61,847 nt of DNA from Patescibacteria group bacterium (GTDB taxonomy: Bacteria; Patescibacteriota; Minisyncoccia; Phycocordibacterales; SBAW01), in the NCBI GenBank assembly GCA_040389385.1, contig JAZKAA010000001.1, positions 1 through 61,847 on the forward strand, written 5' to 3'. Both the position numbers and the translations under genes were made by a program. The notes under the pieces are model-generated. The model had not been told where the DNA came from, did no database searches, and was given only the letters and a program-made list of their open reading frames with translations. Of the stretch, positions 1 to 27,176 are shown in pieces; positions within the stretch are counted from its first letter, which is position 1; every line of letters starts with the position of its first letter.

Positions 1-3000
1 GCCTTTCTGCCAACCAGATCGTCTACACCAACAACGCTAAGCAAGAGGTGAGTGTGGCCACCGGCACCGTTGCGGCAGGTACGGGCATCACCGTCACGGG
101 CAACCAGTACATCATCGGTTCGGGTCTTACCATTACTAACACCATTGGGTATCCGTTTGTGGGGAATGCCACCAACACACTCATTGCCTTTAACGGGGGG
201 CTCTCCAGTGCTTCCACCACCCTCACCGGCAACTTTGTCTTTGCCAACGCCACGGGGACTAATGCGACGACGACTAACTTTGCAGTAACCGGCACGGCGT
301 CCACCACCGCTCTTATAGTCTCCAACGCGGGCGGTGTGGCAGGATGCGCCACGTTTGACACTGTGGGCACCATCTCCAATACCCACACTGCTTGCGGTTC
401 GGGGAGCAGCAGCTATCCGTTTGCTCTCACCGGCAACGCCACCTCAACTCTGACCCAATTCAATGGGGGACTGACTGCCTACGCGTCAACGACAATTGGC
501 TCCGGCACACAAATAGGTGGGCTCACTATCAGCGGCGGTGCGACCACTACGGGCAACTCGTATTTGGCGGGTAACGTAGGCATTGGGACACAGCCGGACG
601 CAGTCGGCGCGCTCAACGTCGGTGGTGCGGTCAATCTCACCATGCAGACCAATGCGTTTAACACTACAAGCATTTACACAGCCCTTGTCATAGGCTCTAC
701 CACCGGTGCGTCGGCTGGCAACGGAGGTCTCTACGCGATAGGTCGCTTCAACAAAGCAAACGAGCCATTTGCTGCACTCTCAGGCTGGGATGACGCAAGC
801 AACCGCCAGCTCTATTTCGGCGGCGGCGGGTGGCAAACGCCGGAGGCTACCGAGCAGTTCTTCTATACCGCGACTACATACAACGAAAATAACAATGCAG
901 CGCTTAAACGTGGCTACCTTGCCGCCGACGGCAGCGTCTACTGGGGCGGTTCGATCACTGCGACACACGGCGGCACCGGCGCCACCCTCTCGATACTCGG
1001 CACAGGCAACGTCGGCGTTGGCACCACCTCACCGCTTGCGCTTCTTACCGTAGCAACTCCGCCAGGTGCGACAGGATCTGTCGGCAATCTTTTCATGGTC
1101 GCCTCCTCAACTCCGACCGCGACGACAACCCTCTTTAGCGTCTCTAACACCGGCTCCACCACGCTCTTCCAGATCCCCAGCGCTCTCCTTACTACCAATG
1201 CCGCTGGCACTATAGTGGGTACATCAAGCCTGGGCGTAGCCTACGGCGGCACCGGCTCTACCACTTTGGGCGCCATTTTGGCCGGCGGCGGCTCCTCTAT
1301 ATATAGTGTCGCCACCGGCACCGTAGCAGCAGGCACCGGCATCACCGTTACCGGCAACCAGTACATCATCGGCTCGGGCCTCACCATCACCAACACCATC
1401 GGGTATCCCTTCACCGCCACCAACAACGCCACGGGTACTCTTACCCAGTTCAACGGGGGACTGACCGCGTTTGCCAGCAGCACCATCGGTAATGGCACGG
1501 CAGGCCTCACCATCTCGGGTAACTCCACCACCACTGGCAACTCATACTTTGCAAGCAACGTGGGTATTGGCACTACCTCACCATTTGCCAGACTTTCCAT
1601 CCACGCCAACAACGGCGATACGGCGACAACTCTCTTTGCTATCGGGTCTTCAACCGCTACCGCCACCACCACGCTGTTTAGTATCCTAAACACCGGCAAC
1701 GTTGGTATCGGCACGTCTTCTCCCTTTGCCGCCCTGTCCATCTATGCAACAGCCTCCTCCACCAACAGAACGCTCTTTGCCATAGCCTCGACCTCTAACG
1801 TTGCGGGTGTATTTTCCACCTCGACACTCTTCTCCATTTCGAACATTGGAGTAATCAACACGAACCCTTCCGGAACAACCTCCGTGCTTACAATGAATGG
1901 TCAGAATTTCCTTACCGGTTCATTAAGGGTTGGTGGTTTCGGGTCTGTTTATCTTGGTGTCGACGCGGGTGCTTCCGACCCCGGCCCAACCGGAAACGTA
2001 TTTTCAAACGTCGGCATCGGCTATCAGGCACTTACTGCGGTAACTGGTATTGGGGGAGCAGGAGGGACTGAAAACGTTGCCATTGGTTCTGGGGTCCTCG
2101 GTAATCTCACGGGCACTACCGGCGGTGGCAATTCCAATGTGGCCATCGGCGACGGAGCATTGGGGTCTGCCACAGGAGCAGACGGTAATTCCAGCCATGA
2201 TTCCAATAATGTCGCGGTAGGCATCTCAGCTTTGAGCATCAATAAGGGAGGGTCGGACAATACAGCGGTGGGCCTCATCGCATTAAAATTAAATATCACA
2301 GGCAACGAGAATGTCGCCATTGGGGAGGGTGCAAGCCAAAACAACCTCTCTGCCACCTCGACAGTGGCAATCGGACTAAATGCGGCTGCTGGTGGTGACT
2401 TTATAAACCACTATAACGCGCAAGGGTACACTGTTGTGGGATATCAGGCAGGGGCAAGTATAAGGACCGGTAGTGACTATAATACCCTCATCGGCTATAA
2501 GGCAGGCTCTTCTGTTACCACCGGCTTTGCCAACCTTGTTCTCGGCACCTCACAGACGGCAAGCAACCTCACAACCGGCTCCGGCAACATCCTTATCGGC
2601 AACAATGCATTTGCCACCACGTCGGGCTCGGGTAATGGTCTCAACATTGGCGGCCTTGTCTTTGGCCAGTTGCCCGCCACTTCGACCGCGTTTAAACTCC
2701 CGACATCGGGTAGCGTTGGTGTCGGCACCTCGTCGCCCTTTGCCAAGTTCTCCATCCACTCAAACAACGGCGACACCGCGACCACGCTCTTTGCGATCGG
2801 GTCCTCGACCGCAAGTGCCACCACAACACTCTTTAGCATCTCCAACACCGGCACCATCCATACAAGTCTAGTTAGCTGCGATACGATCGACGCGGACTCC
2901 AACGGCAACTTGCTCTGCGGTACCGACCAGACTTCTACTGGCGCGGCTAATCCGTTTACGTGGTCTACAAACTACAACGTCGTTACGGCAGCTACCTCCT

Positions 3001-6000: not shown

Positions 6001-7997
6001 ATCTCAACGCCGCTAGTGGCAACATAGTTATAGGCGCATACGTTGATGCGGCCAATAACAATGCTAACGCGCAGCTCAATGTTGGAAATGTGCTCTTTGG
6101 CACCGGGCTCTATAACAGCACCACGGCCTCGGGTGCGGCTGTTACCAACGGCAACTTGGGCGTCGGTACGTCATCACCCTTTGCGCAGTTTTCTATCCAC
6201 GGCATCAACGGTAGTACCAACACGACGCTCTTTGCTGTCGCCTCCTCAACCGCCACGGCCACCTCGACACTCTTCTCTATAACAAATACCGGCAGCGTTG
6301 CGCTCGGCACCTCTACACCGTGGGCCTTGTTCTCTCTACAGGCGTCCACAACCAACATGATTGCAGGTCAGCCGCTCTTTGTGGTTGCATCCTCGAGCGT
6401 TAGTGGCAGCAGCGTCGCCACGCTCTTTAAGATAGACAATATAGGCAACGTGGGTATCAGCTCCACTTCACCAAACACGCTGCTTTCCGTCGGAGGCAAC
6501 GCTTACTTTGGGACCGGCACCGGGTCGACGCTTACCTTCCACGCAGGCACCATCAACTACCCCGTAACATCAACATCCACGATACTCAATCAGGCCAACA
6601 GCTTCTCCATCGCCACCTCGACCGCCGCAGGCAACGGCCCTGTCTTCTCCATCTCCGGCAACGGCGCAACGTCAACGATTATGTTCTTTGGTGCGACGTC
6701 TACGCTGCTCAACGTCGGCGGTGCGAGCGGCGTTACCGGTGCTGCTGCGACATTGCGCAACTACCTCATAGTCGGCGACGGCAAGACCAACGCTTCAGTC
6801 GCTATAGTCAAAGGCTCGCTCTGTGTCGACAGTGACGGATGGTGCGTCGCGTCAACGACACAGGCTGGCGGCGGCGGTGGCTCGATAGCCGCGCGCGACT
6901 CGGTGCGTGTGGGCAATACCGACTTGGCCGAAATGTACGTCTCTTCTACGACGCTCAACAAAGGTGACATCATTGCTACCGACGGAGGCTTTGCTATCAG
7001 GGCTGCACAGGGCGACACCAAACACAAAGTCATCGGTATTATATCCAGCGACCCGGGACTCGTGCTTGGCGCAGCGCCCGACGACGACGGCAGAAACAAA
7101 TATCCGGTAGGCTTGGCGGGACGCGTACCGGTCAATGTGTCGCTGCAAAATGGCCCGATTGCCGTGGGCGACCGTATTACACTTTCCTCTACGCCGGGCG
7201 TCGGTATGAAGGCAGGTCCGTTTGACGCCTCGGTGGGTATCGCGCTCGAGGCATACGACGGCACGGCGACCAGCAGCGTGCTCGCCTTCCTTACCCTGCA
7301 GCAGGGGACTGATATTGCGGCTATTTCGCAAGCGTTGCTCGGCACCACTACTCCCACGAGCACGCCGGCGTACGTCTCGGCCAGCATCCTTGGCTCGGCC
7401 AGCGACGCACTGCGCTCGGTGCTCGACGATACTTTGGCGGGCTTTGCCTTGCTCGGCCAAAAGGGCGTGCGCATGATGGGTGATGTGATGGCTGCGAGCG
7501 TGGGTATATTTGACAAGGTGTTTGCCTCGCATGTGTACGCCGACACGGTTACTGCCCACACGTTGTGCTTGGGCGATACCTGCGTCGACGAGCAACAACT
7601 CAAGGGCCTGCTCAACGCAACCAGCACACCGCAGCCCGACCCGGTAATGTCTGACCCGACACCTGTTATAGAAATAAATGGCAATAACCCGGCATATGTA
7701 CCGCTCCATGCCAGCTACAGCGACCTGGGCGCCATTATCACCGGCCCGACAGACGCAGACCGCAACTTGGGAATCAGCCTTTTGCTGGATGGGGTAGCGG
7801 TACCCTCTATATATATAGACACCGCCACCACAAGTGAGTACTGGGTAACCTACCGTGCGACCAACCAAGGGGGGTTTGTCGGCGAGGCACGCCGCAAAGT
7901 AGTGGTGTATGACCCCAACTTTGGTCAGCCGGACATGGGTACGGCAACCTCGACGGACCCCGGCGACACATCAACCAGTACACCTCCTACGCCATAA
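1..7997 (+). CDS. Giant repetitive cell-surface/adhesin-like protein, 5'-partial (>2649 aa)
   Basis: The frame of the GTG at 48 stays open back to the window edge and ends at TAA 7995-7997. It has at least 8 copies of a ~50-aa module (G-N/S-V/L-G-I/V-G-T-T/S-S-P-F-A-K/R-F/L-S-I ... TTLFAI.SST..ATTTLFS-I/V-SNTG). Three blocks of N-x-A-I/V-G-x-x-A-L repeats look like Hep_Hag/YadA-head repeats. Composition is Thr/Ser/Gly/Ala-rich. The C-terminus resembles a tail fibre (see findings). Confidence 0.85.
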   Translation, partial: LSANQIVYTNNAKQEVSVATGTVAAGTGITVTGNQYIIGSGLTITNTIGYPFVGNATNTLIAFNGGLSSASTTLTGNFVFANATGTNATTTNFAVTGTASTTALIVSNAGGVAGCATFDTVGTISNTHTACGSGSSSYPFALTGNATSTLTQFNGGLTAYASTTIGSGTQIGGLTISGGATTTGNSYLAGNVGIGTQPDAVGALNVGGAVNLTMQTNAFNTTSIYTALVIGSTTGASAGNGGLYAIGRFNKANEPFAALSGWDDASNRQLYFGGGGWQTPEATEQFFYTATTYNENNNAALKRGYLAADGSVYWGGSITATHGGTGATLSILGTGNVGVGTTSPLALLTVATPPGATGSVGNLFMVASSTPTATTTLFSVSNTGSTTLFQIPSALLTTNAAGTIVGTSSLGVAYGGTGSTTLGAILAGGGSSIYSVATGTVAAGTGITVTGNQYIIGSGLTITNTIGYPFTATNNATGTLTQFNGGLTAFASSTIGNGTAGLTISGNSTTTGNSYFASNVGIGTTSPFARLSIHANNGDTATTLFAIGSSTATATTTLFSILNTGNVGIGTSSPFAALSIYATASSTNRTLFAIASTSNVAGVFSTSTLFSISNIGVINTNPSGTTSVLTMNGQNFLTGSLRVGGFGSVYLGVDAGASDPGPTGNVFSNVGIGYQALTAVTGIGGAGGTENVAIGSGVLGNLTGTTGGGNSNVAIGDGALGSATGADGNSSHDSNNVAVGISALSINKGGSDNTAVGLIALKLNITGNENVAIGEGASQNNLSATSTVAIGLNAAAGGDFINHYNAQGYTVVGYQAGASIRTGSDYNTLIGYKAGSSVTTGFANLVLGTSQTASNLTTGSGNILIGNNAFATTSGSGNGLNIGGLVFGQLPATSTAFKLPTSGSVGVGTSSPFAKFSIHSNNGDTATTLFAIGSSTASATTTLFSISNTGTIHTSLVSCDTIDADSNGNLLCGTDQTSTGAANPFTWSTNYNVVTAATSSAIWAQSGIFASSTSHFVSADFSTGATSSAFAISNIASGNILKTTTGGSLVAAVAGSDYITGAGLAAAFPFTATTNFGTTANSTSTAIWFQNGLQASSTARLSDISTIGILNFASTTFNASSTLISINGQSFLSASTSATVRNLFLGLSAGSNVRSSTNSTGIGYKALFNATSSSAVNNTALGAEALAGNANDSSGGYNTAVGTFALHSNSSGSTNTAIGAGALQFNSSGANTTALGAFAGGQSGGSNDTFVGAGTALLSFGDRSTAVGAAALYGDYGEGAPNTGAGPDNTAIGYSAGGFIDGGYGNTTLGSYAGQNVITGYNNILVGYNTLATSSTAVNTLNIGNFIFGNLPATTSSATKKLTLPTTGSLGVGTSSPFAKFSIHSNNGDTATTLFAIGSSTASATTTLFAITNTGTIDTALTTGCVQSDSSGILSSTGVACGSGGGSYPFALTGNATSTLTQFNGGLTAFASSTIGNGTQTGGLTISGGATTTATSTLAGLIVNSGNVGIGTASPQSALEIDDNSGGSPHYLLRLVNTFVGGGPQEGILFYGPNSTNPADRNWANNTNVNQEGDFAIFSSADNTSLPVSSSGTKLEILSNGNVGLNNDRNPGVTLSVASGNAQIGYAAGQTAPSNGLIVSGSLGVGTSTPWGKFSINNSTSDTGGQPLFVVASSTATATTTLFSISNTGSVLIGTSTNTTLSATNPAFVTIDSGTATSEEGLAVLGNVNDFYEMNVKNLSSGSAAQSCVTATGNTGTLTTNFLSGCVNSTTFNNPQPYNAGFAGDSNLISLANNFYLAQGTSGKNTFILNGGVGTSSIAIAISSTNNNVGIGTTSPFAKFSIQATSTETNTTLFAIASSTASATTTLFSVSNTGTINLKLDASTSTLATFAGQTFLTASTTGFNTGLGLNSLSKTTSGSQNVGLGYSALGQLTTGTQNTAIGSGALSGSAISGSNNTAVGYNSMATANSGNADNTTLGSVTGQNIFGSRNIVIGSNAGFDLNAASGNIVIGAYVDAANNNANAQLNVGNVLFGTGLYNSTTASGAAVTNGNLGVGTSSPFAQFSIHGINGSTNTTLFAVASSTATATSTLFSITNTGSVALGTSTPWALFSLQASTTNMIAGQPLFVVASSSVSGSSVATLFKIDNIGNVGISSTSPNTLLSVGGNAYFGTGTGSTLTFHAGTINYPVTSTSTILNQANSFSIATSTAAGNGPVFSISGNGATSTIMFFGATSTLLNVGGASGVTGAAATLRNYLIVGDGKTNASVAIVKGSLCVDSDGWCVASTTQAGGGGGSIAARDSVRVGNTDLAEMYVSSTTLNKGDIIATDGGFAIRAAQGDTKHKVIGIISSDPGLVLGAAPDDDGRNKYPVGLAGRVPVNVSLQNGPIAVGDRITLSSTPGVGMKAGPFDASVGIALEAYDGTATSSVLAFLTLQQGTDIAAISQALLGTTTPTSTPAYVSASILGSASDALRSVLDDTLAGFALLGQKGVRMMGDVMAASVGIFDKVFASHVYADTVTAHTLCLGDTCVDEQQLKGLLNATSTPQPDPVMSDPTPVIEINGNNPAYVPLHASYSDLGAIITGPTDADRNLGISLLLDGVAVPSIYIDTATTSEYWVTYRATNQGGFVGEARRKVVVYDPNFGQPDMGTATSTDPGDTSTSTPPTP

Positions 7998-8188
7998 AAC
8001 GTTGTGGTAATTGAACATCTCGGCTAAGCGAGGCATTATTTTTTTGCAATGATAAAGTTAAGTCCACCCACCTCCTTGAGTTTTTTTGGTTGCTTGGGAC
8101 TCCACCTACGACCCTGCACAACAGAGTGCCAATCTGAAATGAAAGCCAATTGAGTTAGTCACACTTTGGCCATATATAGAGCCGCCAT

Positions 8189-11100
8189 ATGGCTTTACCG
8201 CGGTACAATTTAGCTAAGCAGCACATGATTTTTTTAAAGCACTTACATAAGCTCACGCGCCGGGAGTTACATACTCTTGGCGGCTTGTGCGCCGGCACCT
8301 CTTTTTTGTTGTTTGTTGCGTTGGGTATATCGGGCAACTTTCCTAATCTGCCGGAGTCGTTAAAACTTGTGCTCAGTCAACAAGGAAACGCGCAAACGGC
8401 TACGGTATATAACAGCAGCACAAGCTACACAGTGCCGCCGGGCGTAACCAGCGTATATGTGCAGGTATACGGCGCCGGCGGAGGAAACGATTACAGCAGC
8501 ACGTTTGCGGGTTCGTGTGGCGGCTACGGCGTATACATTAACGGCAACGGTCCCGGCGCCTCCGGTGGCTACACCAATGGGATGATACCCGTCACTCCGG
8601 GCCAGGTGCTTAGCGTTGTTGTCGGTACGGTCAATGGGGGAGGTGCGCCCGGTGCCGGTCCGGGCTACGGCGGCGGGTACTCGGGCGTGTTTGACGGTAA
8701 CCCACAACAGTCGACTGCGCTCATGGTGGCCGGCGGCGGCGGCGGCGCGGGTAGGTATGTGGTGATAGCAAACTATGCCGGATACTGCGGTATCGGAAAT
8801 GCCGCCGGATCGGCTCCCGGCGCAGGAGGAGGAGCAAACGGTGCGGGTACCGGGGTGCTGACGGGCGGCGGCGCAGGCGGATATGGTGGAGGTGGTGGTG
8901 CCGGCTACTATGGAGGTGCGGGCGGTCAGAGTAGCGGCACAAACGGCAGCGGCGGCGCAGGTGGCTCCGGCTATTGCGCGCCAAGCCTCGCCAACTGCAC
9001 AACATCCTCAGGTGGCGGCGCGGGAGCGGCCGGCACTGGCTCGGTATCCATTGTGCCAAGTACCGCAGTGCTCAGCATTTCGGCCACGCCGCAGTCGGTC
9101 GCTGCGGGCGGTACCTCCAACATCGCGTGGAATGCGACCGGCGTCGTTGCCAATAGCTGCACTATCTCAAGCGGACAAGGCCCGCTTGGCTCGCAGGGTC
9201 TCGGCACTGACGTCTCGGGCAATGGCAGCCACTTTGCACTTGGGAACATCAGCGCCCAGGACCAGGTGAGCGATACACCCACCAACAGCTTTGCGACGCT
9301 CAACCAAATATATTACTCCATACAGACCTACTCCAAAGGCACCGTGCAAGACGCGGGCCTCGCGGCTAATGGCGGCTATGGCGCCGCTACCGGCTGGCAG
9401 CTTACCTCGGGCAAGTGGTATTGGGAGTATGCAGTGCAGCCGGGTGCTAAATCCGGCGGCTGGCCAATAGTGGGAGTATTTAAAGACACCACGAGCGGCT
9501 CAGCATATCGGTTGTATCCAGGGCATAACAATGACGACGGCATAGGCTACGGCGCTGACGGGACTACCTACTTTGACACCGGAAGCCGCGGTACGCTTGC
9601 ATCCTTTACCGCTGGTGACGTCATCGGCGTCGCTTACGATGCCGACACGGGCAAGGTCTACTTTTCTAAAAACGGGACGTGGCAAAACAGCGGCAACCCT
9701 ACGGCCGGCACAGGCTATCTCGCGATTGTAAAAGGCGGTTACCCGGGCCTTTCGAGTTATTACGGTAAGACGATAGTTAACTTTGGGCAACTCGCCGCCG
9801 TAACCTCCGCCCGCGTCTATTCTATCCCCGGCATCTACGCCTACGCGGTTCCGGTGGGCTACTCATCTATTACAGTGTCGGTCGCGGGAGCGGGCGGCGG
9901 CGGCACGGGTGGTACCGCCAAAATCAACTGCGACAAGTACAACAATTGCGTTTACCAGCCGGGGTCAGCTGGCGCCGGGGGTACCGCTAGCGCCTTTTAC
10001 GCCACGAACGCCTCCGGCGGCGGGGGAGGCGGCGTCAACGGCGGCGCAAGCGGCGGCGACACCAACACGGTCGCCGGTGGCGCGTCCGGCGGTGCCGGCG
10101 GTGCCGGTAGCGGCGGCACCGGGGGCGTCGGCGGCAATGGCGGCTTGGCCGTTAAAACCTACGGAGTGGGAGTTTTGTCCGGCAATATACAGGTTGTCGT
10201 AGGTTCCGGCGGTGCGGGTGGCGGTGGCGCTTGCAATGCTAAAGACAAATACAACAATTGCATTGGCTATGAGCCAGCGGGAGCCGCGGGTGCCAATGGC
10301 GCAGTCACCATCCAAGCCACGGGAGCACCCACCACCGGGGGAGGAAACTTTTACTTCCCGCCGCCGAGCGGGTACAACGCGATTTCGACCGCCAACTTGC
10401 CCGCGCCGGCGGTGGCCCAGCCTGCAAACTACTTTGGCGCCACCACCTACACCGGCACCGGCCAGAGCCCGCAGACTGTCGGCGGGCTTAACTTTGCTCC
10501 TGACCTGGTCTGGATTAAAAATCGCGCCGGTGCCTTTTGGAACACGCTCTCCGACACAACCCGCGGACCAAACAGCGACCTCTTTAGCAACAGCACTAGC
10601 GCGGCCACACCCAATGACGCCAACGGCTGGCTAAGCTCCTTTAGTACCAACTCGTTTGCAGTCGGGGGGCAGTGCAGCGCACTCTCCGGCAACACTAACC
10701 TCATCGGCAACAATTATATTTCCTGGGCGTGGAAAAAGTCTCCCACAAGCGGCATGGACATTGTCTCCTATACCGGCGACGGCACGAGCAACCGGAGCAT
10801 CGCCCACGCGCTCGGCACGACGCCCGACTTTATTATGGTGAAGCGTACCGACAACACCGGCGATTGGTTTGTATGGAGCTCGGCCATGGGCTCAAACAAC
10901 TACCTCAAGCTCAATACCCAGGACGCGGCCAGCACCGTCAACTCGCCGTGGGGCGTGGCGACGATGAGCACGACCAACTTTACGGTCACGGCAAACGCGA
11001 CCAACAACGCCAACCTCGCGGGCGCCAATTATGTAGCCTATCTCTTTAGCAATCGCGACGGCTTCCAAAAAAGCGGCAGCTACGTCGGCAACGGCACCGC

Positions 11101-14100
11101 CGACGGGCCGGTCATCTATACCGGCTTTAAACCCAAGTTTGTAATGATACGCTCATTGCAAGCGGGCAACTTGGAGTCTTTGATGTACGACTCGTCACGC
11201 GACACGTCTAATCCAGCAACTCATTATATAAGTGCGGGTTTTAACTCTACGGGCGTTGAGCTCACAAGCAGTGGAGATATCGATATTCTTTCGAACGGTT
11301 TTAAAGTGCGTAATACGACCTCGTCAGGAAACAACTCAGGTCAGACGTTCGTTTACATCGCCTTTGCCGATGTGCCGTTTAAGTCGGCATCGGCGGCCAA
11401 TGGTTACAGCGTCCCCAACTCGGCACGGTTTGACGCGAGCAACAATGCCTACTTATCGCACACCAACACGGCTGTCGGTGCGACCACCAAAGGCACCGTC
11501 TCGTTTTGGATGAAGCGGGGGAGTATCTCGGGCAGCCGCATGAACGTGCTTAGCGCTGGCAACAACGCAGAGATGATAGGCCCGAGCAATGACTCAAACG
11601 TGGACACACTGTGGGTGCGCCTTGCCAACGGCTCCGACATGAACTTTGGCGGTACGGCCTCCAACATGGCCAAGCTACGCGACCCCACTGCCTGGGACAA
11701 TATAGTAGTAGCGTGGGACACGACACAGGCAACCGCTGCAAACCGCGTGCATGTCTACCGCAATGGTATTGAGCAACCGCTCGTCGCCGGCACGTATCCT
11801 GCGCAAAATGCCACCGTTTCTCTTTTTAACAGTGGGGTAGCTGCCAACATCGGTCGCGACATTGCTAATGCGGCATACTACTTCGACGGCAATCTTGCCG
11901 ACTTCTATGCCGTTGATGGCTCGCAGCTGACTCCAAGCAGCTTCGGCGCAGCAGACTCCAACGGCTTTTGGAAGCCCAAGGCTTACAGCGGCACCTACGG
12001 CACCAACGGCTTTTATTTCAACTTCCAAAACGCGCTCAACATGGGCGCTGATGCATCGGGTCGCGGCAACAACTTTACTCCCAACAATATTTCCGCGGTT
12101 GACCAAATGCCCGACACACCGACCGACAATTACGCGACGCTCAACCAAAACAATTATTACTCGGGCTACCCCAAAGGCGTTGTGCAGGGAGGAGGCCTTG
12201 CGGCTAACGGCAATTATGGCACCGTGGCAGACTGGCAGCTCACAACAGGCAAGTGGTACTGGGAGAACGTTATCGGCGGCTCAAACGGCGGCTGGCCTAT
12301 GCCCGGCGTCTTTAGCGATCCGACCAGCGCCGTCACAGGCAGAGCATATCCGGGGCACTCCAACGACTACGGGTTCGGGTACTTTCAATCGGGGACTGTC
12401 TATAGTAACGGCTCACCCCAACCGGCTGTCGTATCTCCCTTTAACAACGGTGACATCATCGGTGTCGCCTACGATGCTGACACGGGCAAGGTCTACTTTT
12501 CTAAAAACGGCGTGTGGCAAAACAACGCCAGCCTGAACCTAATACCCACGATGACGGGGCAGACGACCTCCGGCGTCACCATAACCGACTCGACTGAGTA
12601 CAGCACCGACTACTCGGCATGGCGTACCGCCGACCGCAACTCGGGCTCCGGCTGGGACGCGTACCCCACGCCACCTAGCGTCGCCGCGCCACAGTGGATG
12701 CGCACCGACTTTGGCGCATCTAACGGCAAGACGGTCGGCTCCTACTCGATACAAATCTGGCCCGCTGTGGGCTCCTACGACCCGCTCGACTTTGCGCTCG
12801 AGGGCTCCAACGACTCCGCCACCTGCTCGGCGGGCAACGGTACGGCCGGCAGTACGTGGACTATTCTTGACATCGAGACAAACGCTCTCTGGAGCTATGC
12901 CTCTCAGGCACAGACCTTTTCTGTGCCGGTCGGTAACCAAGCGAGCTATCGCTGCTACCGCCTTAAGGTAACGAGAAGCAACGGCAACTCGCAGCTGCTC
13001 ATATCAGAGTTTGGCCTCTACGTGGCTACAAGTCCTAACCCTGCTGTTGACGGGAGCGTGAGCCCTGTCGGCACCGTGACCAATGGTTGGCCCGGACTCG
13101 CGAGCTACTACGGCAAAACTACGGTCAACTTCGGCCAAGGCTCGCCCACGACACTGTTTGGAGATGCCTCAAACTACGGGCGCGTCCTCTTACCTGTCGT
13201 GGGTCAGCCAACGCCATCAGGCACCATCGTTAAGCTTGGCTCGGCAAGCGGGTTCTTTAATGGTTTAAGCGCGCTTACTTCGCCGCAAAGCAGCGAGCTC
13301 AACATGTCCGGCGACTACACTATAGATTTGTGGGCGTATCCGACATCGCTAGGCACAAGCGGAGGGCTCGTTTCGCGCGACTATAGTGCCGGCTACACCC
13401 CGTACCTTGTATATCAAAGTGGCAGTACCTTTACCTTTTACTCTTCAGCAGTTGGTGGTGACTGGTCGATAGCCTCAGCACAACCGATTTGTACAGGGGT
13501 CACTATAAACACCTGGTACCATTTGGCAGTGGTGCGCTCGGGCAATACGTACCGCACCTTTTGCAACGGTACGCAGACCGCAACCTGGAGCTCGGCCGCA
13601 ACGCCATGGGCCGCGCCCTATCCGCTGGTGCTGGGCAGGCAGGCCACCGGCGGACCCTACTTTGTGGGCTATCTCGATGAAGTGCGCATAAGCAACACCG
13701 CGCGTTGGACATCCAACTTTACGCCGCCTACAAGCGCCTACTCGAGCGATGCCAACACGCTCTTCTTGGCGCATATGGACAACGAGCGCAGTAGCTTTTA
13801 CAAGAGCGCGTCCGACGGTTACTTTGCCTACACGCCGCCGAGCGGCTACAAAGCGCTCTCGACCAATAACTTGGCCGCACCTGCAATAGCCAAGCCATCC
13901 AACTACTTTGACGCCAAAGCCTACAGCGGCTCGGGCGGCTCTCCGAGCTTTGACCCGATAAATAAAGACAGCTTTATAACGCTGTCCAACAACAACTTCG
14001 ACGCAAACTCCTCAACCAACACCTACTGGAACACGCTCTATGGCACCAACAGCTTCTCTGCAGGCAAATGGTATGCGGAGTTTAAGATAGGTGCGGCCTA

Positions 14101-17100
14101 CTCAAACACCATCGGCATCGGCGATGCCACAAAGCGTCTCACGGGCACGGCCTCGCAGCAGCTCGGCCAGTTTGCCAACGAGTACGCTTACAACCCGGAG
14201 AACAATCGTTTGTACAGCAACAATGTAATAACCAGCGGCTATCCAACAGTAGTGGCGGGGGATGTCGTGATGGTCGCGGTTGATATGGACGCGGGCTTGA
14301 TATGGTTCGGCAAAAACGGAGCGTGGTTTAACAGCGGCAATCCGGCGACGGGCACCGGTGCTCAGTTTACCGGGGTAACCGGCTCGAAGGTTTTTGCGGC
14401 TTCGTTGCTTGCGGGCGACGGTACTCTCCAGGCCGAGTTTGGCCAAAGTGGCCGCCCTGGTAGCACCAACTACCCGGCTGCGGGAGGCAACTTCTGGTAT
14501 CAGCCACCGACGGGCTTTTCCGCGCTCGCGGCCCAGGGCGGCGCGCAGGAGATAGGACTCAGCTTCCAGCCCGACCTGGTGTGGATCAAAAACCGCACGA
14601 CAACATACTGGAATACGCTGGTCGACTCGCTGCGCGGGGCGGGGAGAGATGTATTTTCCAACAGCACCTCTGCGCAGACCTTTAATGACACCAACGGCAC
14701 GGTTAGCGCCTTTACACCCAGCGGTTTTACGGTGGGCGGCAGCTGCACCGGTGCCGGCGGCGGCAATGTTAACACTCTCAACAGCACTTACAGCGCATGG
14801 CTCTTAAAGGAGTCGCCCGCGGCGGGCTTTGATATCGTAAGTTACACCGGCAACGGCACCACCAACCGCTCCGTGGCGCAGGCACTCGGTACGACGCCCG
14901 ACTTTATCATCACCAAGGCCGTCAACGCCATCGGCGATTGGTTTGTCTACGACAAAGCGATGGGGGAGAGCAGCTTTGCCAAGCTCAACACCACCGACGC
15001 ACAAAGCGAGGTCTCCTCGCCGTTTAGTATCGACCTCATTCCCAAGATGACTGCTGTCACAACCAACGGGGTTACAATGAGCGGTGGTGGCAACTCAGGC
15101 GTGTGCGAGTATCAGGCGGCGTGGCATGCCGGCGACAAAATTGTAGCACCGAGCGATTATTGGGATGGCTACAACTCTACTACTCCCTCGCTCTGCACTC
15201 CCTCGATTTCAAACCCTGTGTGGCTCAAGGTTGACTTTGGTACGGCAAAAACCGCCACGGCTTACTCTATCTCGTCATTCCAGTATCCGTCGGTGTACTA
15301 CGACCCAATAGATTTTACTCTGCAGGGCTCCAACGACAATACCGCATGGACAACGCTCGACACCCAAACAAGTGTAGGTTGGACTCCGTTTGAGTCGAAG
15401 ACCTTTACCGTCGCAACCCCCGGCAGTTATCGCTACTATCGCGTCAGCACCACCCGCATTGGCGCTGGCGGCAACGAATTTATAATCCAAGAGCTGCACC
15501 TCTATGGCGCAGGGACGCTCAATACCGCGTCCAACTTTGTTGTCTCGGGCGCGCTCAACACCGCCTCTACCAACTACATCTCCTACCTCTTTTCCAACCG
15601 CGAGGGGGTACTCAAATCCGGCATTTACAACGGCAACAACTCCACCGACGGCCCCTTTATCTACACAGGCTTCAAACCCAAATGGGTGATGATTAAGGAT
15701 GTTAGTACGGGCAACGCCTACACGCATTGGAGCGTATATGACAGCGCACGGGACCCGAGTAACCCGCTCACAAAAATGCTCTACCCCGATGCCGCGCTGG
15801 TCGAGGGGAACGACGGCTACTGCAGCACGGCAAATTGTCCGATAGACTTTCTTGCAAACGGGTTTAAGGTTCGCTCCGGCGGGTATTGGAACACCAACTA
15901 TCAACCAGAAGCATACGCCTATATCGCCTTTGCCGACGTGCCGTTTAAAGAGAGCGCCGACACCAGCGTGTCGACTATCCCCTATGCGTTGCGTTTTAGC
16001 GCCAACAACAGCGACTATCTCTCACACAATTTTGCGCTTGCCTCCACCGACGCCAAAAAGGGCACCGTGAGCTTCTGGCTTAAACGTGCAGCGATAAACG
16101 GGGGCTGGCAGTTCCTCTATGGCGGTTCAGGGGGCATATATCTGGACCCGAGCGACCACATACGCATATACGACGCGGCGTACGACATATACAGCACTCA
16201 GACTTTCCGCGACCCATCGCAGTGGATACACTTTGTGTTTGCGTTCGACAGCACTGCCGCGGCCGGCCAGCGCGTCAAAGCCTGGGCCAACAATGTGCCG
16301 CTCACCTTCACGGCATATGCGGAGCCGGCGGCAAACGCGCCGTTCAACATCCTATCTACCGGTGCGCGCGCCTTTGGTATGTCGGGAGGGACTAATTACC
16401 CCCTCGACGGCTACCTCGCCGAGGCCAACGTGGTCGACGGGCTGGCGCTCGACCCGAGTAGCTTTGGCCAGTACGACGCCAATGGAGTGTGGAAGCCCGC
16501 AACCTACGGCGGGCAATATGGCGTCAACGGCTTCCATCTCAATTTTGCCACGACTGCCGTCAGTACGCCCACCAACAGCGGCAATGTGACGGTTGGGCCG
16601 CTTTTCAATACGAGCACCTACACCCTGCAGTGCCAACCGCTGCCGGGCGAGGGGAGCGGGTACCTATCCAAGAGCACCACGGTTACCGTCTCGCCCAACC
16701 TGGTGCAACTGAGTGCCTGCAACAGCTTGGGGAGCTGCTCAACCAATAGTGCATCGTCGGTGTATATCACTCCCAACACTTCGGCACTCCTCAGCTGGAA
16801 CGCCCCCACTGCGGATGCAAACTCCTGCACAGTTACATCGCTTGCGGCGGGTGTAAGTGGGACTATCAGCCCCGCCAATACCAACAGCGCAACCAATGTC
16901 ACGAGCCCGGCCGTCAACGCCAATACCACCTATACGCTTACCTGCCAGATAAACGGCACGCCGGCCACTGCAAGTGCCGCGGTGAGTGTCCAACAAGCCT
17001 GCGCAAGCTCGGGCTCCACGCTCTCCTGCGCTAACCAATGCGTCTTTACTTCCGACTCCGTCAACGCGCCGGCGACATTGTCGTGGTGCTGCCCGACAGG

Positions 17101-17521
17101 CTCCGCGGTGGGCACCGGCTTCTCTACCGGCGGAGCCACCAAAGGCTCGACAAACGTAACCGACAACGGCACGTACGGATTGCAGTGTCCGACCGGGAGT
17201 GGCTCGGTAACACTCGCCGGCGTAGCGCCCGCGGTAACTAACCCGCTGGTTGCATCTCCCACCCGTGTGCGCAAAGGGGGGACTACGTCGCTCTCGTGGA
17301 GCGTAAACTCGCTGAGCCCCGGCACCTCCTGCTCGATAACCCCTGCGCTCAGCAATGGCATGGCCGTATGGGACGGCTCGGGTACCTCATGGACCGGCAC
17401 AAACGTGCGCAGTCTGCCGATCAATAGCCCCACCAAATTTACGCTTACCTGCACCAACGGCAGCGGCACCGTCAGCGCCTCGGCCAGTGTCGGCCTGCTT
17501 CCGACGTTCCAGGAGATTTAA
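8189..17521 (+). CDS. Giant (3110 aa) membrane-anchored multi-domain recognition protein: glycine-rich x2, SPRY x3, LamG/concanavalin-like x3, discoidin x2, C-terminal Ig-like repeats
   Basis: Single uninterrupted ORF with an N-terminal hydrophobic span (GGLCAGTSFLLFVALGISG). SPRY signatures: GKWYWE.. followed by IGVAYDADTGKVYFSKNG.WQN. Discoidin-like signatures: W.(R/K).DFG ... DP.DF.L.GSND ... YR.YR. LamG-like signatures: GTVSFW.KR ... DG.LA.....DG.L.PSSFG, and WYHLAVVRSGNTYRTFCNG...YLDEVRISN. The glycine-rich domain starts Y.VP.GV.S..V.V.GAGGG. Confidence 0.85.
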   Translation: MALPRYNLAKQHMIFLKHLHKLTRRELHTLGGLCAGTSFLLFVALGISGNFPNLPESLKLVLSQQGNAQTATVYNSSTSYTVPPGVTSVYVQVYGAGGGNDYSSTFAGSCGGYGVYINGNGPGASGGYTNGMIPVTPGQVLSVVVGTVNGGGAPGAGPGYGGGYSGVFDGNPQQSTALMVAGGGGGAGRYVVIANYAGYCGIGNAAGSAPGAGGGANGAGTGVLTGGGAGGYGGGGGAGYYGGAGGQSSGTNGSGGAGGSGYCAPSLANCTTSSGGGAGAAGTGSVSIVPSTAVLSISATPQSVAAGGTSNIAWNATGVVANSCTISSGQGPLGSQGLGTDVSGNGSHFALGNISAQDQVSDTPTNSFATLNQIYYSIQTYSKGTVQDAGLAANGGYGAATGWQLTSGKWYWEYAVQPGAKSGGWPIVGVFKDTTSGSAYRLYPGHNNDDGIGYGADGTTYFDTGSRGTLASFTAGDVIGVAYDADTGKVYFSKNGTWQNSGNPTAGTGYLAIVKGGYPGLSSYYGKTIVNFGQLAAVTSARVYSIPGIYAYAVPVGYSSITVSVAGAGGGGTGGTAKINCDKYNNCVYQPGSAGAGGTASAFYATNASGGGGGGVNGGASGGDTNTVAGGASGGAGGAGSGGTGGVGGNGGLAVKTYGVGVLSGNIQVVVGSGGAGGGGACNAKDKYNNCIGYEPAGAAGANGAVTIQATGAPTTGGGNFYFPPPSGYNAISTANLPAPAVAQPANYFGATTYTGTGQSPQTVGGLNFAPDLVWIKNRAGAFWNTLSDTTRGPNSDLFSNSTSAATPNDANGWLSSFSTNSFAVGGQCSALSGNTNLIGNNYISWAWKKSPTSGMDIVSYTGDGTSNRSIAHALGTTPDFIMVKRTDNTGDWFVWSSAMGSNNYLKLNTQDAASTVNSPWGVATMSTTNFTVTANATNNANLAGANYVAYLFSNRDGFQKSGSYVGNGTADGPVIYTGFKPKFVMIRSLQAGNLESLMYDSSRDTSNPATHYISAGFNSTGVELTSSGDIDILSNGFKVRNTTSSGNNSGQTFVYIAFADVPFKSASAANGYSVPNSARFDASNNAYLSHTNTAVGATTKGTVSFWMKRGSISGSRMNVLSAGNNAEMIGPSNDSNVDTLWVRLANGSDMNFGGTASNMAKLRDPTAWDNIVVAWDTTQATAANRVHVYRNGIEQPLVAGTYPAQNATVSLFNSGVAANIGRDIANAAYYFDGNLADFYAVDGSQLTPSSFGAADSNGFWKPKAYSGTYGTNGFYFNFQNALNMGADASGRGNNFTPNNISAVDQMPDTPTDNYATLNQNNYYSGYPKGVVQGGGLAANGNYGTVADWQLTTGKWYWENVIGGSNGGWPMPGVFSDPTSAVTGRAYPGHSNDYGFGYFQSGTVYSNGSPQPAVVSPFNNGDIIGVAYDADTGKVYFSKNGVWQNNASLNLIPTMTGQTTSGVTITDSTEYSTDYSAWRTADRNSGSGWDAYPTPPSVAAPQWMRTDFGASNGKTVGSYSIQIWPAVGSYDPLDFALEGSNDSATCSAGNGTAGSTWTILDIETNALWSYASQAQTFSVPVGNQASYRCYRLKVTRSNGNSQLLISEFGLYVATSPNPAVDGSVSPVGTVTNGWPGLASYYGKTTVNFGQGSPTTLFGDASNYGRVLLPVVGQPTPSGTIVKLGSASGFFNGLSALTSPQSSELNMSGDYTIDLWAYPTSLGTSGGLVSRDYSAGYTPYLVYQSGSTFTFYSSAVGGDWSIASAQPICTGVTINTWYHLAVVRSGNTYRTFCNGTQTATWSSAATPWAAPYPLVLGRQATGGPYFVGYLDEVRISNTARWTSNFTPPTSAYSSDANTLFLAHMDNERSSFYKSASDGYFAYTPPSGYKALSTNNLAAPAIAKPSNYFDAKAYSGSGGSPSFDPINKDSFITLSNNNFDANSSTNTYWNTLYGTNSFSAGKWYAEFKIGAAYSNTIGIGDATKRLTGTASQQLGQFANEYAYNPENNRLYSNNVITSGYPTVVAGDVVMVAVDMDAGLIWFGKNGAWFNSGNPATGTGAQFTGVTGSKVFAASLLAGDGTLQAEFGQSGRPGSTNYPAAGGNFWYQPPTGFSALAAQGGAQEIGLSFQPDLVWIKNRTTTYWNTLVDSLRGAGRDVFSNSTSAQTFNDTNGTVSAFTPSGFTVGGSCTGAGGGNVNTLNSTYSAWLLKESPAAGFDIVSYTGNGTTNRSVAQALGTTPDFIITKAVNAIGDWFVYDKAMGESSFAKLNTTDAQSEVSSPFSIDLIPKMTAVTTNGVTMSGGGNSGVCEYQAAWHAGDKIVAPSDYWDGYNSTTPSLCTPSISNPVWLKVDFGTAKTATAYSISSFQYPSVYYDPIDFTLQGSNDNTAWTTLDTQTSVGWTPFESKTFTVATPGSYRYYRVSTTRIGAGGNEFIIQELHLYGAGTLNTASNFVVSGALNTASTNYISYLFSNREGVLKSGIYNGNNSTDGPFIYTGFKPKWVMIKDVSTGNAYTHWSVYDSARDPSNPLTKMLYPDAALVEGNDGYCSTANCPIDFLANGFKVRSGGYWNTNYQPEAYAYIAFADVPFKESADTSVSTIPYALRFSANNSDYLSHNFALASTDAKKGTVSFWLKRAAINGGWQFLYGGSGGIYLDPSDHIRIYDAAYDIYSTQTFRDPSQWIHFVFAFDSTAAAGQRVKAWANNVPLTFTAYAEPAANAPFNILSTGARAFGMSGGTNYPLDGYLAEANVVDGLALDPSSFGQYDANGVWKPATYGGQYGVNGFHLNFATTAVSTPTNSGNVTVGPLFNTSTYTLQCQPLPGEGSGYLSKSTTVTVSPNLVQLSACNSLGSCSTNSASSVYITPNTSALLSWNAPTADANSCTVTSLAAGVSGTISPANTNSATNVTSPAVNANTTYTLTCQINGTPATASAAVSVQQACASSGSTLSCANQCVFTSDSVNAPATLSWCCPTGSAVGTGFSTGGATKGSTNVTDNGTYGLQCPTGSGSVTLAGVAPAVTNPLVASPTRVRKGGTTSLSWSVNSLSPGTSCSITPALSNGMAVWDGSGTSWTGTNVRSLPINSPTKFTLTCTNGSGTVSASASVGLLPTFQEI

Positions 17522-17551: not shown

Positions 17552-18118
17552 ATGAACTTCAACACTGGCAGTTTTGGCGACATGAGGAGGAGAAAGGCAC
17601 TTGTACTCGTCGCGGCGGTAGTGTTAGTGGTCGCGCTCGGGCTTGCGTGGTACGCGACACACCGGGCGCCTCCCGGCCCGGAGCCGACGACGTTTTTTGA
17701 GTGCAGTCATATGTACAAAGTGCAGGAGGGCTCGCCCCGCGTCTGCCGCACGGCCAGAGGTAATACGTTTTATGACTACCAGGGCAACCTACCCGCTTTT
17801 GCCGGCAGTATCCGGATTACGAATCTCCCGCCGGCGCCGGTAGTAACTGCCTCTCCTATAGTGGTGCAAGGCGAGGCAACGGCAGACTGGTACGTCAACG
17901 GAAGCTTTGCCGTAGAGCTTGTCTCCGGAGCGGGCGCGGTCGTTGGGAAAGGGCAAGCTACAGTGCAAAAAAAGGTTCCGGGGCCCGCACTCTCTGAAAA
18001 CGTGTCTCCTTTTGCCGTATCGATATCCTTTGACGCCCAAAAGCCCGGCACACCGGGGGCGCTGGTCTTTAAAAAGGCCGACGGCAGCGCCAGCATGGTG
18101 CTCCCCGTGGCGTTTTAA
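17552..18118 (+). CDS. Membrane-anchored protein with Gmad2-type Ig-like domain
   Basis: N-terminal TM span (LVLVAAVVLVVALGLAWY). The C-terminal part, ITNLPPAPVVTASPIVVQGEATADWYVNGSFAVELVSGAGAVVGKGQATVQ, resembles the Gmad2 immunoglobulin-like domain as recalled. Confidence 0.6.
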   Translation: MNFNTGSFGDMRRRKALVLVAAVVLVVALGLAWYATHRAPPGPEPTTFFECSHMYKVQEGSPRVCRTARGNTFYDYQGNLPAFAGSIRITNLPPAPVVTASPIVVQGEATADWYVNGSFAVELVSGAGAVVGKGQATVQKKVPGPALSENVSPFAVSISFDAQKPGTPGALVFKKADGSASMVLPVAF

Positions 18119-18139
18119 GCTTATGATAAACTTATATAT

Positions 18140-18349
18140 ATGAAACTCACGCGGTATGTATTGATAGGAGTTAGCTTGGTGTTTGGACTCGTGCTCAATC
18201 TGCATATGTATGTACAGGGGTTCCTCTCAACCCACTTCTCTCACAAGAGCTCACTGGCGTCCGAGGAGTGCACCAACGACCAATCGAGTGCCCCTACAAC
18301 CAACCCGAACAAGCTACTGTTTATTTCGTGCGGAGGGTTTTTGGAGTAG
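18140..18349 (+). CDS. Small hypothetical membrane protein (69 aa)
   Basis: ATG start with an N-terminal hydrophobic helix (YVLIGVSLVFGLVLNL). No recognisable motif. Confidence 0.35.
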   Translation: MKLTRYVLIGVSLVFGLVLNLHMYVQGFLSTHFSHKSSLASEECTNDQSSAPTTNPNKLLFISCGGFLE

Positions 18350-18358
18350 AGTTAGGGC

Positions 18359-20121: not shown

Positions 20122-20184
20122 TATGGTCTTTGATAGCCGCCTGGTAGTGCGGAAGTTCCAACCAACACACAGAAGGGGTCGTTG

Positions 20185-21171: not shown

Positions 21172-21191
21172 CGGGGGTTATAAACATGCGG

Positions 21192-21228
21192 ACGCGCGGC
21201 AAGAGTTCCTTGCCGCGCGTTTTCTTTT
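21192..21228 (+). terminator. Rho-independent terminator after the Bug-family gene
   Basis: ACGCGCGGCAAG-AGTTC-CTTGCCGCGCGT, a 12-bp stem, followed by TTTCTTTT. Confidence 0.65.
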
Positions 21229-21244
21229 GCCTGATACTTAGCCT

Positions 21245-24168: not shown

Positions 24169-24198
24169 CGCAAAAATTTAGGTTTATACTAACTGTAT

Positions 24199-27155: not shown

Positions 27156-27172
27156 CAGAAGGTGCCCTTCTG
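27156..27172. repeat. REP-like hairpin, copy 1 (CAGAAGG-TGC-CCTTCTG)
   Basis: Perfect 7-bp inverted repeat, 3 nt after the tkt-N stop codon. Confidence 0.7.
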
Positions 27173-27176
27173 TAAT

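Follow-up and report, generated by a model that had tools for sequence, protein, structure and literature searches.

The first 17.5 kb of contig JAZKAA010000001.1, a 61,847-nucleotide (nt) stretch of DNA from a Patescibacteria group bacterium that we analyzed as a whole and refer to here as the window, are filled by two giant open reading frames, ORF1 and ORF2. What are these two proteins, from what kind of parts are they built, and do they belong together? A reading of the DNA letters alone (the sequence-only reading) had seen in them a fiber-like and a multilectin envelope protein, perhaps a functional unit, of a cell belonging to the candidate phyla radiation (CPR). Apart from type IV pili, little is known of the means by which CPR cells find and hold their partners, and ORF1 and ORF2 are concrete, testable candidates for such a role. 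Host recognition has already been suggested as the role of large CPR proteins that bear transmembrane (TM) or signal segments together with adhesion domains, ConA-like and others (PMC13059738), which makes attachment the standard idea for ORF1 and ORF2 too; in a Saccharibacterium, predicted adhesins proved essential (PMC11665869). We consider it probable, if well short of certain, that both genes encode CPR cell surface proteins built from modules of phage tail fibers and tail spikes, one a multivalent lectin and the other a probably trimeric fiber, which are often neighbors and are mutually independent.

ORF2 combines a membrane anchor with phage tail fiber modules

The second gene, ORF2, encodes a protein of 3,110 amino acids (aa). 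As the sequence-only reading had proposed, a predicted membrane anchor lies at its N terminus, in the form of a hydrophobic segment at aa 27 to 51; a signal-anchor of this type is also found in the CPR homologs P0002 and P0004 to P0016 (P numbers denote related proteins and L numbers loci of other genomes). The remainder is largely an array of binding modules: three SPRY domains, three ConA-like laminin G (LamG) domains, two discoidin-like domains, two copies of DUF7483, and C-terminal immunoglobulin (Ig)-like repeats (Table 1). Pfam assigned SPRY (whole-protein E = 7.4e-26, three stretches, self-similarity of 58%), Laminin_G_3 (PF13385; E = 6.4e-28, three stretches), F5_F8_type_C_2 (E = 2.4e-9), and DUF7483 (PF24299), the last with 470.5 bits versus a curated cutoff of 27 bits and in two copies, the second of which is split. 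A DUF7483-LamG supermodule is duplicated (aa 718 to 1280 and aa 2099 to 2786). Since the SPRY domain at aa 1285 to 1446 follows the first copy only, while that at aa ∼1960 to 2086 precedes the second, SPRY lies outside the duplicated unit. The C-terminal Cys-containing Ig-like region is conserved in P0002, P0015, and P0016 and in a separate 438-aa gene of L002. The two glycine-rich regions, to which P0005 is the only homolog to align, had no Pfam match at E ≤ 1, and Gly_rich_2 or ALK_LTK_GRD could not be assigned to them, although relatives bear those Pfam labels. Likewise, no catalytic Pfam family was matched in tiles of ORF2 even at E ≤ 1. The claim that neither protein has an enzyme motif thus stands for ORF2; it is not strictly correct for ORF1, which carries a putative autoproteolytic intramolecular chaperone (IMC) domain (see below).

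Among the PHROG families, ORF2 matched phrog_19943 (E = 5.5e-238), which is annotated "virion structural protein," and phrog_24898 (E = 4.2e-80), annotated "tail fiber protein." When the DUF7483-LamG module was used as a tblastn query, 72 phage records were retrieved at 33 to 37% identity over 88 to 98% of the query. Pelagiphages, Synechococcus and Prochlorococcus phages, roseophages, and a Methylophilales phage are among their sources, and the annotations speak of virion structural, fiber, SPRY, or lectin proteins. In these phage-type homologs, a TM anchor is absent and DUF7483 stands at the extreme C terminus; their N termini are soluble and conserved (e.g., MTRRYTGGF... or MGSRNNKPGRI...). 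An exhaustive profile search for DUF7483 yielded 27,422 cluster representatives, and the best 150 of these mostly show the phage-type pattern. As a control, the isolate Magnetospirillum sulfuroxidans J10 (L085) has its DUF7483 gene after a row of prophage tail and tail fiber genes and before the terminase gene. Because the phage homologs are unanchored, end in DUF7483, and stand in a prophage or virion context, we regard ORF2 as made of phage fiber parts and not as a virion protein.

The AlphaFold2 (AF2) model of DUF7483, computed from a 24-sequence alignment, was confident and all-beta (predicted local distance difference test [pLDDT] score of 86; predicted template modeling [pTM] score of 0.87). 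Alignment of its three thirds with HHalign gave probabilities of 97.6 to 98.9% (E = 3e-12 to 3e-17); the thirds are homologous, and DUF7483 is therefore a triplicated unit of ∼105 aa. A single DUF7483 chain probably mimics the tip of a trimeric fiber with pseudo-threefold symmetry. No significant match was obtained among PDB folds (best E = 2.3e-3; template modeling score, ≤0.30). The weak top matches were to the C-terminal domain of PCSK9 and the Plasmodium APC-beta domain, which we take to be pseudo-threefold beta domains, a hint for DUF7483 and not a result. Against the phage models of BFVD, template modeling scores of 0.7 to 0.88 were reached. Two stand-alone viral proteins in BFVD, A0A516L4G1 (117 aa) and A0A8S0I7N3 (110 aa), matched one repeat unit with a score of 0.81, and such ∼110-aa proteins may represent an ancestral DUF7483 unit that trimerizes. 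A full-text literature search returned no paper mentioning DUF7483, and no solved structure was found. Loci L023, L035, L041, L047, L054 to L056, L061, L066, and L072 come from metagenome-assembled genomes (MAGs) labeled Peribacteria. One MAG, ERP019367_co1_95, holds at least nine separate DUF7483 loci, and for their ORFs to stay open UGA must be a sense codon (translation table 25). This suggests a large family expansion in a recoded CPR lineage, probably under a wrong taxon label.

ORF1 resembles a phage fiber and has a putative gp12-type chaperone domain

The first gene, ORF1, contains nine fiber repeats of ∼55 aa, a hidden Markov model (HMM) of which also finds the repeat in the fiber genes of relatives, and three blocks of shorter repeats. 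Residues 714 to 870 are 38 to 40% identical to annotated tail fibers of pelagiphages HTVC111P/112P and roseophage CRP-831, and phrog_4636, "tail spike protein," matches aa 1136 to 1296 (E = 2.4e-11). With the matches of ORF2 described above, the Pfam and PHROG comparisons agree with the earlier view of two envelope proteins, one fiber-like and one multilectin.

A putative, conserved IMC domain occupies aa 2296 to 2435. A ten-member profile of this domain (A7) matched, in the PDB, residues 691 to 743 of phage phi29 gp12 (6qz9_A; E = 1.5e-5), the isolated C-terminal fragment of gp12 (3gqh; E = 2.7e-5), with the match beginning at the D that opens this fragment, and the Dpo31 tailspike in its chaperone domain (28nb; E = 0.006). 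Six of the ten family members also matched Pfam Peptidase_G2, the "IMC autoproteolytic cleavage domain" (best E = 2.1e-5). The ORF1 motif T-D2307-L-A-E2310-M-Y aligns with S-D-F-A-E-Y-F at the gp12 cleavage site (S691/D692-F-A-E695, with the slash marking the cut). Within the family, the D and A of this motif are invariant and the E is present in at least 90% of members; in the uncleaved gp12 structure 3suc, Q stands in place of E695. In gp12, the Asp and Glu of the cleavage site have a catalytic role. The sequence comparison suggests that ORF1 is a trimeric fiber that may cleave itself before D2307. In the paralogs P0090 and P0091, a Peptidase_S74 chaperone (S-D-x-R-L-K) is found at the position of the ORF1 domain; thus, two different phage-type folding chaperones alternate here.

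Downstream of the chaperone-like domain, ORF1 ends in a predicted helical linker with a Cys loop, an Ig-like domain, and a tail rich in S, T, and P. The Ig-like domain (Bact_surface_Ig-like; E = 4.6e-6 when the whole protein was searched, 5.6e-7 with the tile) is the sole part of ORF1 recognized by Pfam besides a Peptidase_G2 match below the cutoff. The last residues (nt ∼7960 to 7994) read ...TSTSTPPTP, and P0090, P0099, P0102, P0103, and P0147 end alike, in ...(S/T)-S-T-T-P-COOH. This shared tail might serve as a signal for sorting, processing, or glycosylation.

Full-length relatives point to an HTH_17 domain at the missing N terminus

The N terminus of ORF1 lies outside the window, and we therefore turned to its relatives. 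Fourteen of the 34 that were aligned start with a helix-turn-helix (HTH)-like segment and one TM helix at aa ∼83 to 190, and most of the others look N-terminally truncated. Pfam HTH_17 was matched over its full length in all eight N termini tested (E = 6.6e-7 to 2.9e-4), seven of them from the ORF1 family (P0090, P0102, P0103, P0116, P0124, P0128, and P0147) and one from the DUF7483 family (P0017). Among these, P0103 has the C-terminal module of ORF1 and sits at the corresponding locus of its own genome. By analogy, ORF1 probably begins, outside the window, with an HTH_17 domain followed by a single TM helix.

A cytoplasmic, DNA-binding HTH that is tethered to the membrane and joined to an ectodomain of more than 2,000 aa is an odd architecture, and it might couple surface contact to gene regulation. 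In a more far-reaching reading, CPR cells would recognize partners in the manner of phages, through phage-type fibers tethered by a membrane helix with no baseplate, and the HTH_17-bearing fiber could act as a one-component contact sensor. We consider this reading conceivable but doubtful. If it were true, the DUF7483, LamG, and SPRY modules would be the specificity determinants, and comparison with phage fibers could predict CPR host range.

Both ORFs are genuine genes

No internal stop occurs in the 2,664 codons of ORF1 or the 3,110 codons of ORF2. For ORF1, the open stretch of frame 3 begins at nt 3 and closes with a stop whose last base is nt 7997; the first possible start, a GTG at nt 48, would give 2,649 aa, and the database gene call is 2,647 aa. 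The tandem arrangement on one strand that had been described before, with a 5′-truncated ORF of >2,649 aa, a gap of 191 bp, and an ORF of 3,110 aa, was thereby confirmed. By self-comparison, residues 17 to 77 of ORF1 repeat residues 435 to 497 at 76% identity and, by eye, the likeness runs on into the codons before the first GTG. A hydropathy scan found no hydrophobic N-terminal segment in ORF1. Since the 15 codons before this GTG still align with the internal repeat, and since full-length relatives do have such a segment, the 5′ truncation of ORF1 is real. When metagenome_contigs was searched with an exact 50-nt sequence, with the aim of reaching the DNA upstream of ORF1, 0 matches were returned, and looking up the exact proteins encoded in the window likewise gave no match.

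At a threshold of E ≤ 1e-10, ORF1 has 263 relatives, mostly CPR giants of 1,500 to 4,600 aa, and ORF2 has 84 in the databases. Because of these relatives, and because orthologs of ORF2 occupy the same chromosomal position elsewhere, we conclude that both are real genes and not chance ORFs. DNA repeats within them are at most 87% identical, and there is thus no sign of repeat collapse. Neither ORF matched NCBIfam, and whole-protein phmmer searches of the PDB gave a SPRY match alone for ORF2 and nothing for ORF1.

The DUF7483 giant occupies a conserved chromosomal position

The rest of the window is cellular chromosome, with genes for GAPDH, RpiB, Rpe, a split transketolase (Tkt), PfkB, FBP aldolase (FBA), and ribosomal protein L25, as well as a release factor, PheRS, GyrB, a class II aminoacyl-tRNA synthetase, DnaE, and SMC. 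PGA_cap and GT2 envelope enzymes are also encoded, and no capsid, terminase, portal, or tail genes were found among the window genes. The closest locus that we found belongs to a Candidatus Adlerbacteria MAG (L009; GAPDH, 81% identical), and other syntenic loci lie in a complete Kaiserbacteria chromosome (L010) and several Patescibacteria MAGs. With this cellular gene context, and with CPR MAGs labeled Adlerbacteria or Kaiserbacteria as nearest relatives, the earlier assignment to CPR is supported, and the organism is Adlerbacteria-like. The labels "Saccharibacteria" and "Peribacteria" of some related MAGs look automatic and were not relied on.

In at least eight other genomes (L001, L002, L004, L006, L009, L010, L038, and L050), a DUF7483 giant is located directly upstream of the GAPDH-RpiB-Rpe-Tkt cluster, usually with a small TM protein (p188 in the window) in between. 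GAPDH identity across the syntenic loci ranges from 60% to 81%. Orthologs of ORF2 are ∼50% identical, versus 67 to 81% for GAPDH and Tkt, and depending on the genome, the region orthologous to ORF2 consists of one, two, or three ORFs.

In L010 (the Kaiserbacteria GAPDH locus), L012, L027, and L086, the gene immediately before the DUF7483 giant, and on its strand, is a fiber gene, recognized by the repeat HMM or the chaperone domain HMM; in L006 a fiber gene lies 9 kb upstream. At the same locus in L087, P0103 (4,473 aa, with the C-terminal module of ORF1) is followed by a 696-aa LamG protein and then a 188-aa gene; in L040, fiber repeats and DUF7483 are fused in one ORF of 3,252 aa. In L002 and L004, whose GAPDH identity marks them as closer relatives, the 10 kb upstream of the ORF2 ortholog hold no ORF1-type gene, and five midsized genes without assigned function stand there instead. 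ORF2 therefore does not need ORF1. The suggestion that the fiber and the multilectin protein form a functional unit is thus partly supported, by the recurring order and the fusion, and weakened by the absence of the pair in L002 and L004. We see the pair as a recurring and probably ancient feature of this locus, though not an obligatory one.

Neighboring genes and other features of the window

A counterpart of p188 follows the DUF7483 giant in L001, L004/5, L009, and L050, and the 188-aa gene of L087 stands at the same place. The L004 counterpart has a weak Gmad2 Ig-like match. Possibly, p188 is an accessory factor of the DUF7483 giant. A signal peptidase I (Peptidase_S26) gene adjoins the giant in L001 (positions 1345 to 1824) and L006 (16405 to 16944); in the window, no such neighbor of ORF1 or ORF2 was seen.

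The ∼6 kb between p188 and GAPDH (18100 to 24200) hold a 219-aa ORF, AMP-binding and TctC genes, a 444-aa ORF, and a minus-strand ORF of 530 aa. L002 and L004 have TctC and AMP-binding in inverted orientation and beyond the opposite end of the giant genes, a difference that indicates local rearrangement around this island of surface protein genes. An IS200-type Y1 transposase gene (27162 to 27812) separates the two halves of the split transketolase gene, and related Y1_Tnp genes adjoin giant surface protein genes in L001, L004, L006, L008, L010, L012, and L087.

The observation that housekeeping proteins are shortened proved correct for several of them, including the release factor (33678 to 34538), with only 286 aa and a PCRF match limited to positions 78 to 194, and SMC (59505 to 61664), with only 719 aa. 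The PheRS protein (40544 to 41677, minus strand; 377 aa) joins the catalytic core of PheRS alpha (tRNA-synt_2d) to a C-terminal FDX-ACB anticodon-binding domain. This is a single-chain layout, as in mitochondrial PheRS, and not the bacterial alpha2beta2 form.

Table 1. Features of ORF1, ORF2, and their immediate surroundings in the window
Feature	Position (nt)	Strand	Basis
ORF1, giant fiber protein, 5′-truncated, ≥2664 aa	3..7997	+	Open frame; N terminus outside window
Nine ~55-aa fiber repeats along ORF1, G-N-V-G-I-G-T-x-S-P-F-A-K-F-S-I ... TTLFAIGSST(A/S)ATTTLFS(I/V)SNTG	1005..6338	+	Repeat family D2/D1, protein self-comparison
N-T-A-(I/V)-G short-repeat block 1, aa ~691-870	2073..2612	+	Motif positions
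N-T-A-(I/V)-G block 2, aa ~1140-1345	3420-4037	+	Motif positions
N-T-A-(I/V)-G block 3, aa ~1938-2010	5814-6032	+	Motif positions
Intramolecular-chaperone-like domain, phi29 gp12/Peptidase_G2 type, aa 2296-2435	6888..7307	+	Profile vs PDB, Pfam
Motif T-D2307-L-A-E2310-M-Y	6918-6938	+	Motif positions
Conserved core G-R-V-P-V	starts 7119	+	Motif positions
Predicted helical linker and Cys loop L-C-L-G-D-T-C (7563-7583)	7308..7667	+	Both Cys invariant in alignment A2/A3; helices in low-confidence model
C-terminal Ig-like domain (Bact_surface_Ig-like, former DUF5011), aa 2556-2635, then S/T/P-rich tail	7668..7907	+	Pfam
Intergenic gap, 191 bp, with terminator-like hairpin (8018-8033) and T run	7998..8188	+	Consensus match only
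ORF2, membrane-anchored multilectin protein, 3110 aa	8189..17521	+	ATG start; Pfam, relatives
Predicted signal-anchor, aa 27-51, basic residues (K/R) before	8267..8341	+	Hydropathy scan; sole hydrophobic segment
Glycine-rich region 1, aa ~70-290	8396..9058	+	Sequence; only P0005 aligns
SPRY 1, aa 338-500	9200..9688	+	Pfam SPRY
Glycine-rich region 2, aa ~535-717	9791-10339	+	Sequence
DUF7483 copy 1, aa 718-1072, three ~105-aa internal repeats	10340..11404	+	Pfam PF24299, E 3.6e-141
ConA-like lectin (Laminin_G_3) 1	11441..12028	+	Pfam PF13385, self-similarity
SPRY 2, aa 1285-1446	12041-12526	+	Pfam SPRY
Discoidin-like (F5/8 type C-like) 1, aa ~1448-1625	12530..13063	+	36% identity to aa 2280-2453; phrog_10667
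ConA-like lectin (Laminin_G_3) 2, aa 1695-1839	13271-13705	+	Pfam PF13385, self-similarity
SPRY 3, aa ~1960-2086	14066-14446	+	Pfam SPRY
DUF7483 copy 2, aa 2099-2300 and 2439-2613	14483..16027	+	Pfam stretches; self-similarity to copy 1
F5/8 type C/NedA-like galactose-binding insert splitting DUF7483 copy 2, aa 2325-2423	15161-15457	+	Pfam
ConA-like lectin (Laminin_G_3) 3, aa 2624-2786	16058-16546	+	Pfam PF13385, self-similarity
C-terminal Cys-containing Ig-like repeat region, aa 2790-3110	16556..17518	+	Sequence; no Pfam family
p188, 188 aa, N-terminal TM segment	17552..18118	+	Translation; starts 30 bp after ORF2

Discussion

In the reading that we favor, ORF2 would be held in the cytoplasmic membrane by its signal-anchor, with ∼3,050 residues of noncatalytic binding modules projecting outward, and would most likely act as a multivalent lectin for glycans on another cell, as the fibers of pelagiphages, cyanophages, and roseophages presumably bind their hosts. 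ORF1 would be a long fiber, probably homotrimeric, its folding likely aided by the gp12-type chaperone domain, and this domain may release itself through a cut on the N-terminal side of D2307. The two genes would belong to a variable surface protein island just upstream of a conserved glycolysis and pentose phosphate cluster. By analogy with the standard reading of such CPR proteins, attachment to host cells is a reasonable role to infer for them.

Several observations weigh against parts of this reading. The Peptidase_G2 score of ORF1 itself, 19.7 bits, is below the curated cutoff of 25 bits, and only the first ∼55 residues of its domain align significantly with gp12. About 230 residues, including the Ig-like domain, come after the chaperone-like domain of ORF1, and in P0151, P0122, and P0154 the domain is internal, with more fiber repeats after it; internal chaperone domains fit poorly with a C-terminal piece that is discarded. 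The AlphaFold model of the last 434 aa of ORF1 was poor (pLDDT score of 41), the Ig-like domain being the only confidently folded part, and no fold search was made with it. Because of this poor model, the chaperone assignment is drawn from sequence profiles; a poor monomer model is expected, since the fiber is probably trimeric. Finally, identity to the phage modules is only 33 to 40%, a level that excludes recent exchange and does not allow a host to be inferred.

We give almost even credence to the view that the two genes encode independent adhesins that merely share a hypervariable surface protein island, so that their adjacency reflects clustering and not a functional unit. This view accounts for the persistence of the ORF2 ortholog without an ORF1-type gene in L002 and L004, for gene content between TctC/AMP-binding and GAPDH that differs in every genome, with IS200-type Y1 transposases recurring there, and for the run of several giants in L086; a terminator-like hairpin between the ORF1 stop and ORF2, and the separate membrane anchor of ORF2, agree with it. 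It is harder to square with the one-strand order of fiber and DUF7483 genes in L010, L012, L027, and L086 and nearby in L006, with the ORF1 relative that has the same C-terminal module at the same locus in L087, and with the fused ORF of L040. The proteins might instead serve the cell's own envelope, as a protective or structural coat, in the capture of free polysaccharide, or as decoys or shields against phages with the same modules. Lectin modules bind glycans of any source, PGA_cap and GT2 envelope enzymes are encoded in the window, and unattached Patescibacteria are common, and not every lineage has an established epibiotic mode (PMC11665869). However, the only annotated relatives of the modules are phage receptor-binding fibers, and the fast evolution of these loci (ORF2 orthologs at ∼50% identity, with GAPDH and Tkt higher), which would also fit phage pressure, is typical of proteins that face another organism. 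We judge an own-envelope role to be unlikely.

That the genes are degenerate tail fiber genes in a prophage or tailocin remnant seems very improbable to us, in spite of the PHROG tail and virion matches and of the many DUF7483 genes elsewhere that are phage or prophage genes. The distal binding domains of ORF2 are indeed homologous to those of phages. Its neighbors, though, are p188, AMP-binding, TctC, GAPDH, RpiB, Rpe, and Tkt, with no capsid, terminase, portal, or tail genes in the window, and it starts with a signal-anchor where phage proteins have a virion attachment or tail-docking region. Moreover, orthologs keep their chromosomal position in at least eight genomes with GAPDH identities of 60 to 81%, and both ORFs are intact over 2,664 and 3,110 codons. 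We give practically no credence to an assembly artifact or to pseudogenes: ORF1 is repetitive and cut by the window edge, and the orthologous region consists of two or three ORFs in L002 and L004, but internal stops are absent, DNA repeats do not exceed 87% identity, and intact full-length orthologs exist in P0002 (3,871 aa) and L009 (3,602 aa).

If both genes encode surface proteins made of phage fiber modules, as we favor, CPR surface proteins become linked to a very large and unstudied family of phage tail fiber domains, DUF7483. The gp12-type motif predicts a specific, mutable processing site before D2307, and the conserved position next to GAPDH offers a handle for comparing a fast-evolving locus across genomes. 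We found no description in the literature of a phage tail fiber origin of such modules, the triplicated DUF7483, the gp12-type chaperone motif, the HTH_17-TM tether, or the conserved locus.

Comparison with known systems

For the putative chaperone domain, the closest comparison is phi29 gp12, the pre-neck appendage or tail spike, with its C-terminal IMC that cleaves itself (MEROPS/Pfam Peptidase_G2; PDB 3gq7 to 3gqk, 3suc, and 6qz9). Residues 2306 to 2360 of ORF1 align to gp12 residues 691 to 743, S/T-D-x-A-E-x-(Y/F) is found in ORF1 where the released gp12 fragment begins, and in both proteins the domain follows a long fiber. ORF2 resembles the fibers of marine and freshwater podophages (pelagiphages HTVC/EXVC, cyanophage SS120-1, roseophages CRP, and Methylophilales phage MEP301) in its combination of DUF7483 and LamG, in some cases with SPRY, at 33 to 37% identity over ∼590 aa. 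Those proteins are mostly 1,100 to 1,450 aa long, without a TM anchor, with one C-terminal DUF7483, and encoded in virion modules, whereas ORF2 has 3,110 aa, is anchored, contains DUF7483 twice, at internal positions and with a discoidin insert interrupting one of the copies, and is encoded among housekeeping genes.

Some sources name ORF1 relatives as YadA-type trimeric autotransporter adhesins, which they resemble in "N-T-A-I-G"-type repeats and fiber-like composition. In nine tiles of ORF1, no YadA head, stalk, or anchor family of Pfam was matched at E ≤ 1; there is no C-terminal beta-barrel, the C terminus being Ig-like, and the anchor of ORF1 relatives is an N-terminal TM helix. A sortase-dependent LPXTG adhesin was likewise rejected, with ORF1 ending in ...TSTSTPPTP, ORF2 ending in ...GLLPTFQEI, and neither having a C-terminal hydrophobic segment. 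So was a giant RTX adhesin of the type I secretion system (SiiE, LapA, or MpIBP type), for which neither ORF had a Pfam match.

The best fit is with the very large CPR surface proteins described, for example, from Absconditicoccaceae (PMC13059738), which exceed 1,500 aa, bear a TM or signal segment and ConA-like and other adhesion domains, and are encoded in reduced genomes. ORF2 shows all the defining features of that class; ORF1 shows its size and domains, with an N terminus outside the window. The domains listed for that class are generic adhesion domains, without the DUF7483 module, gp12-type chaperone domain, or GAPDH-adjacent locus. We therefore place ORF1 and ORF2, as plausible attachment tools, among the giant surface adhesin candidates of CPR bacteria and not in a new kind of system.

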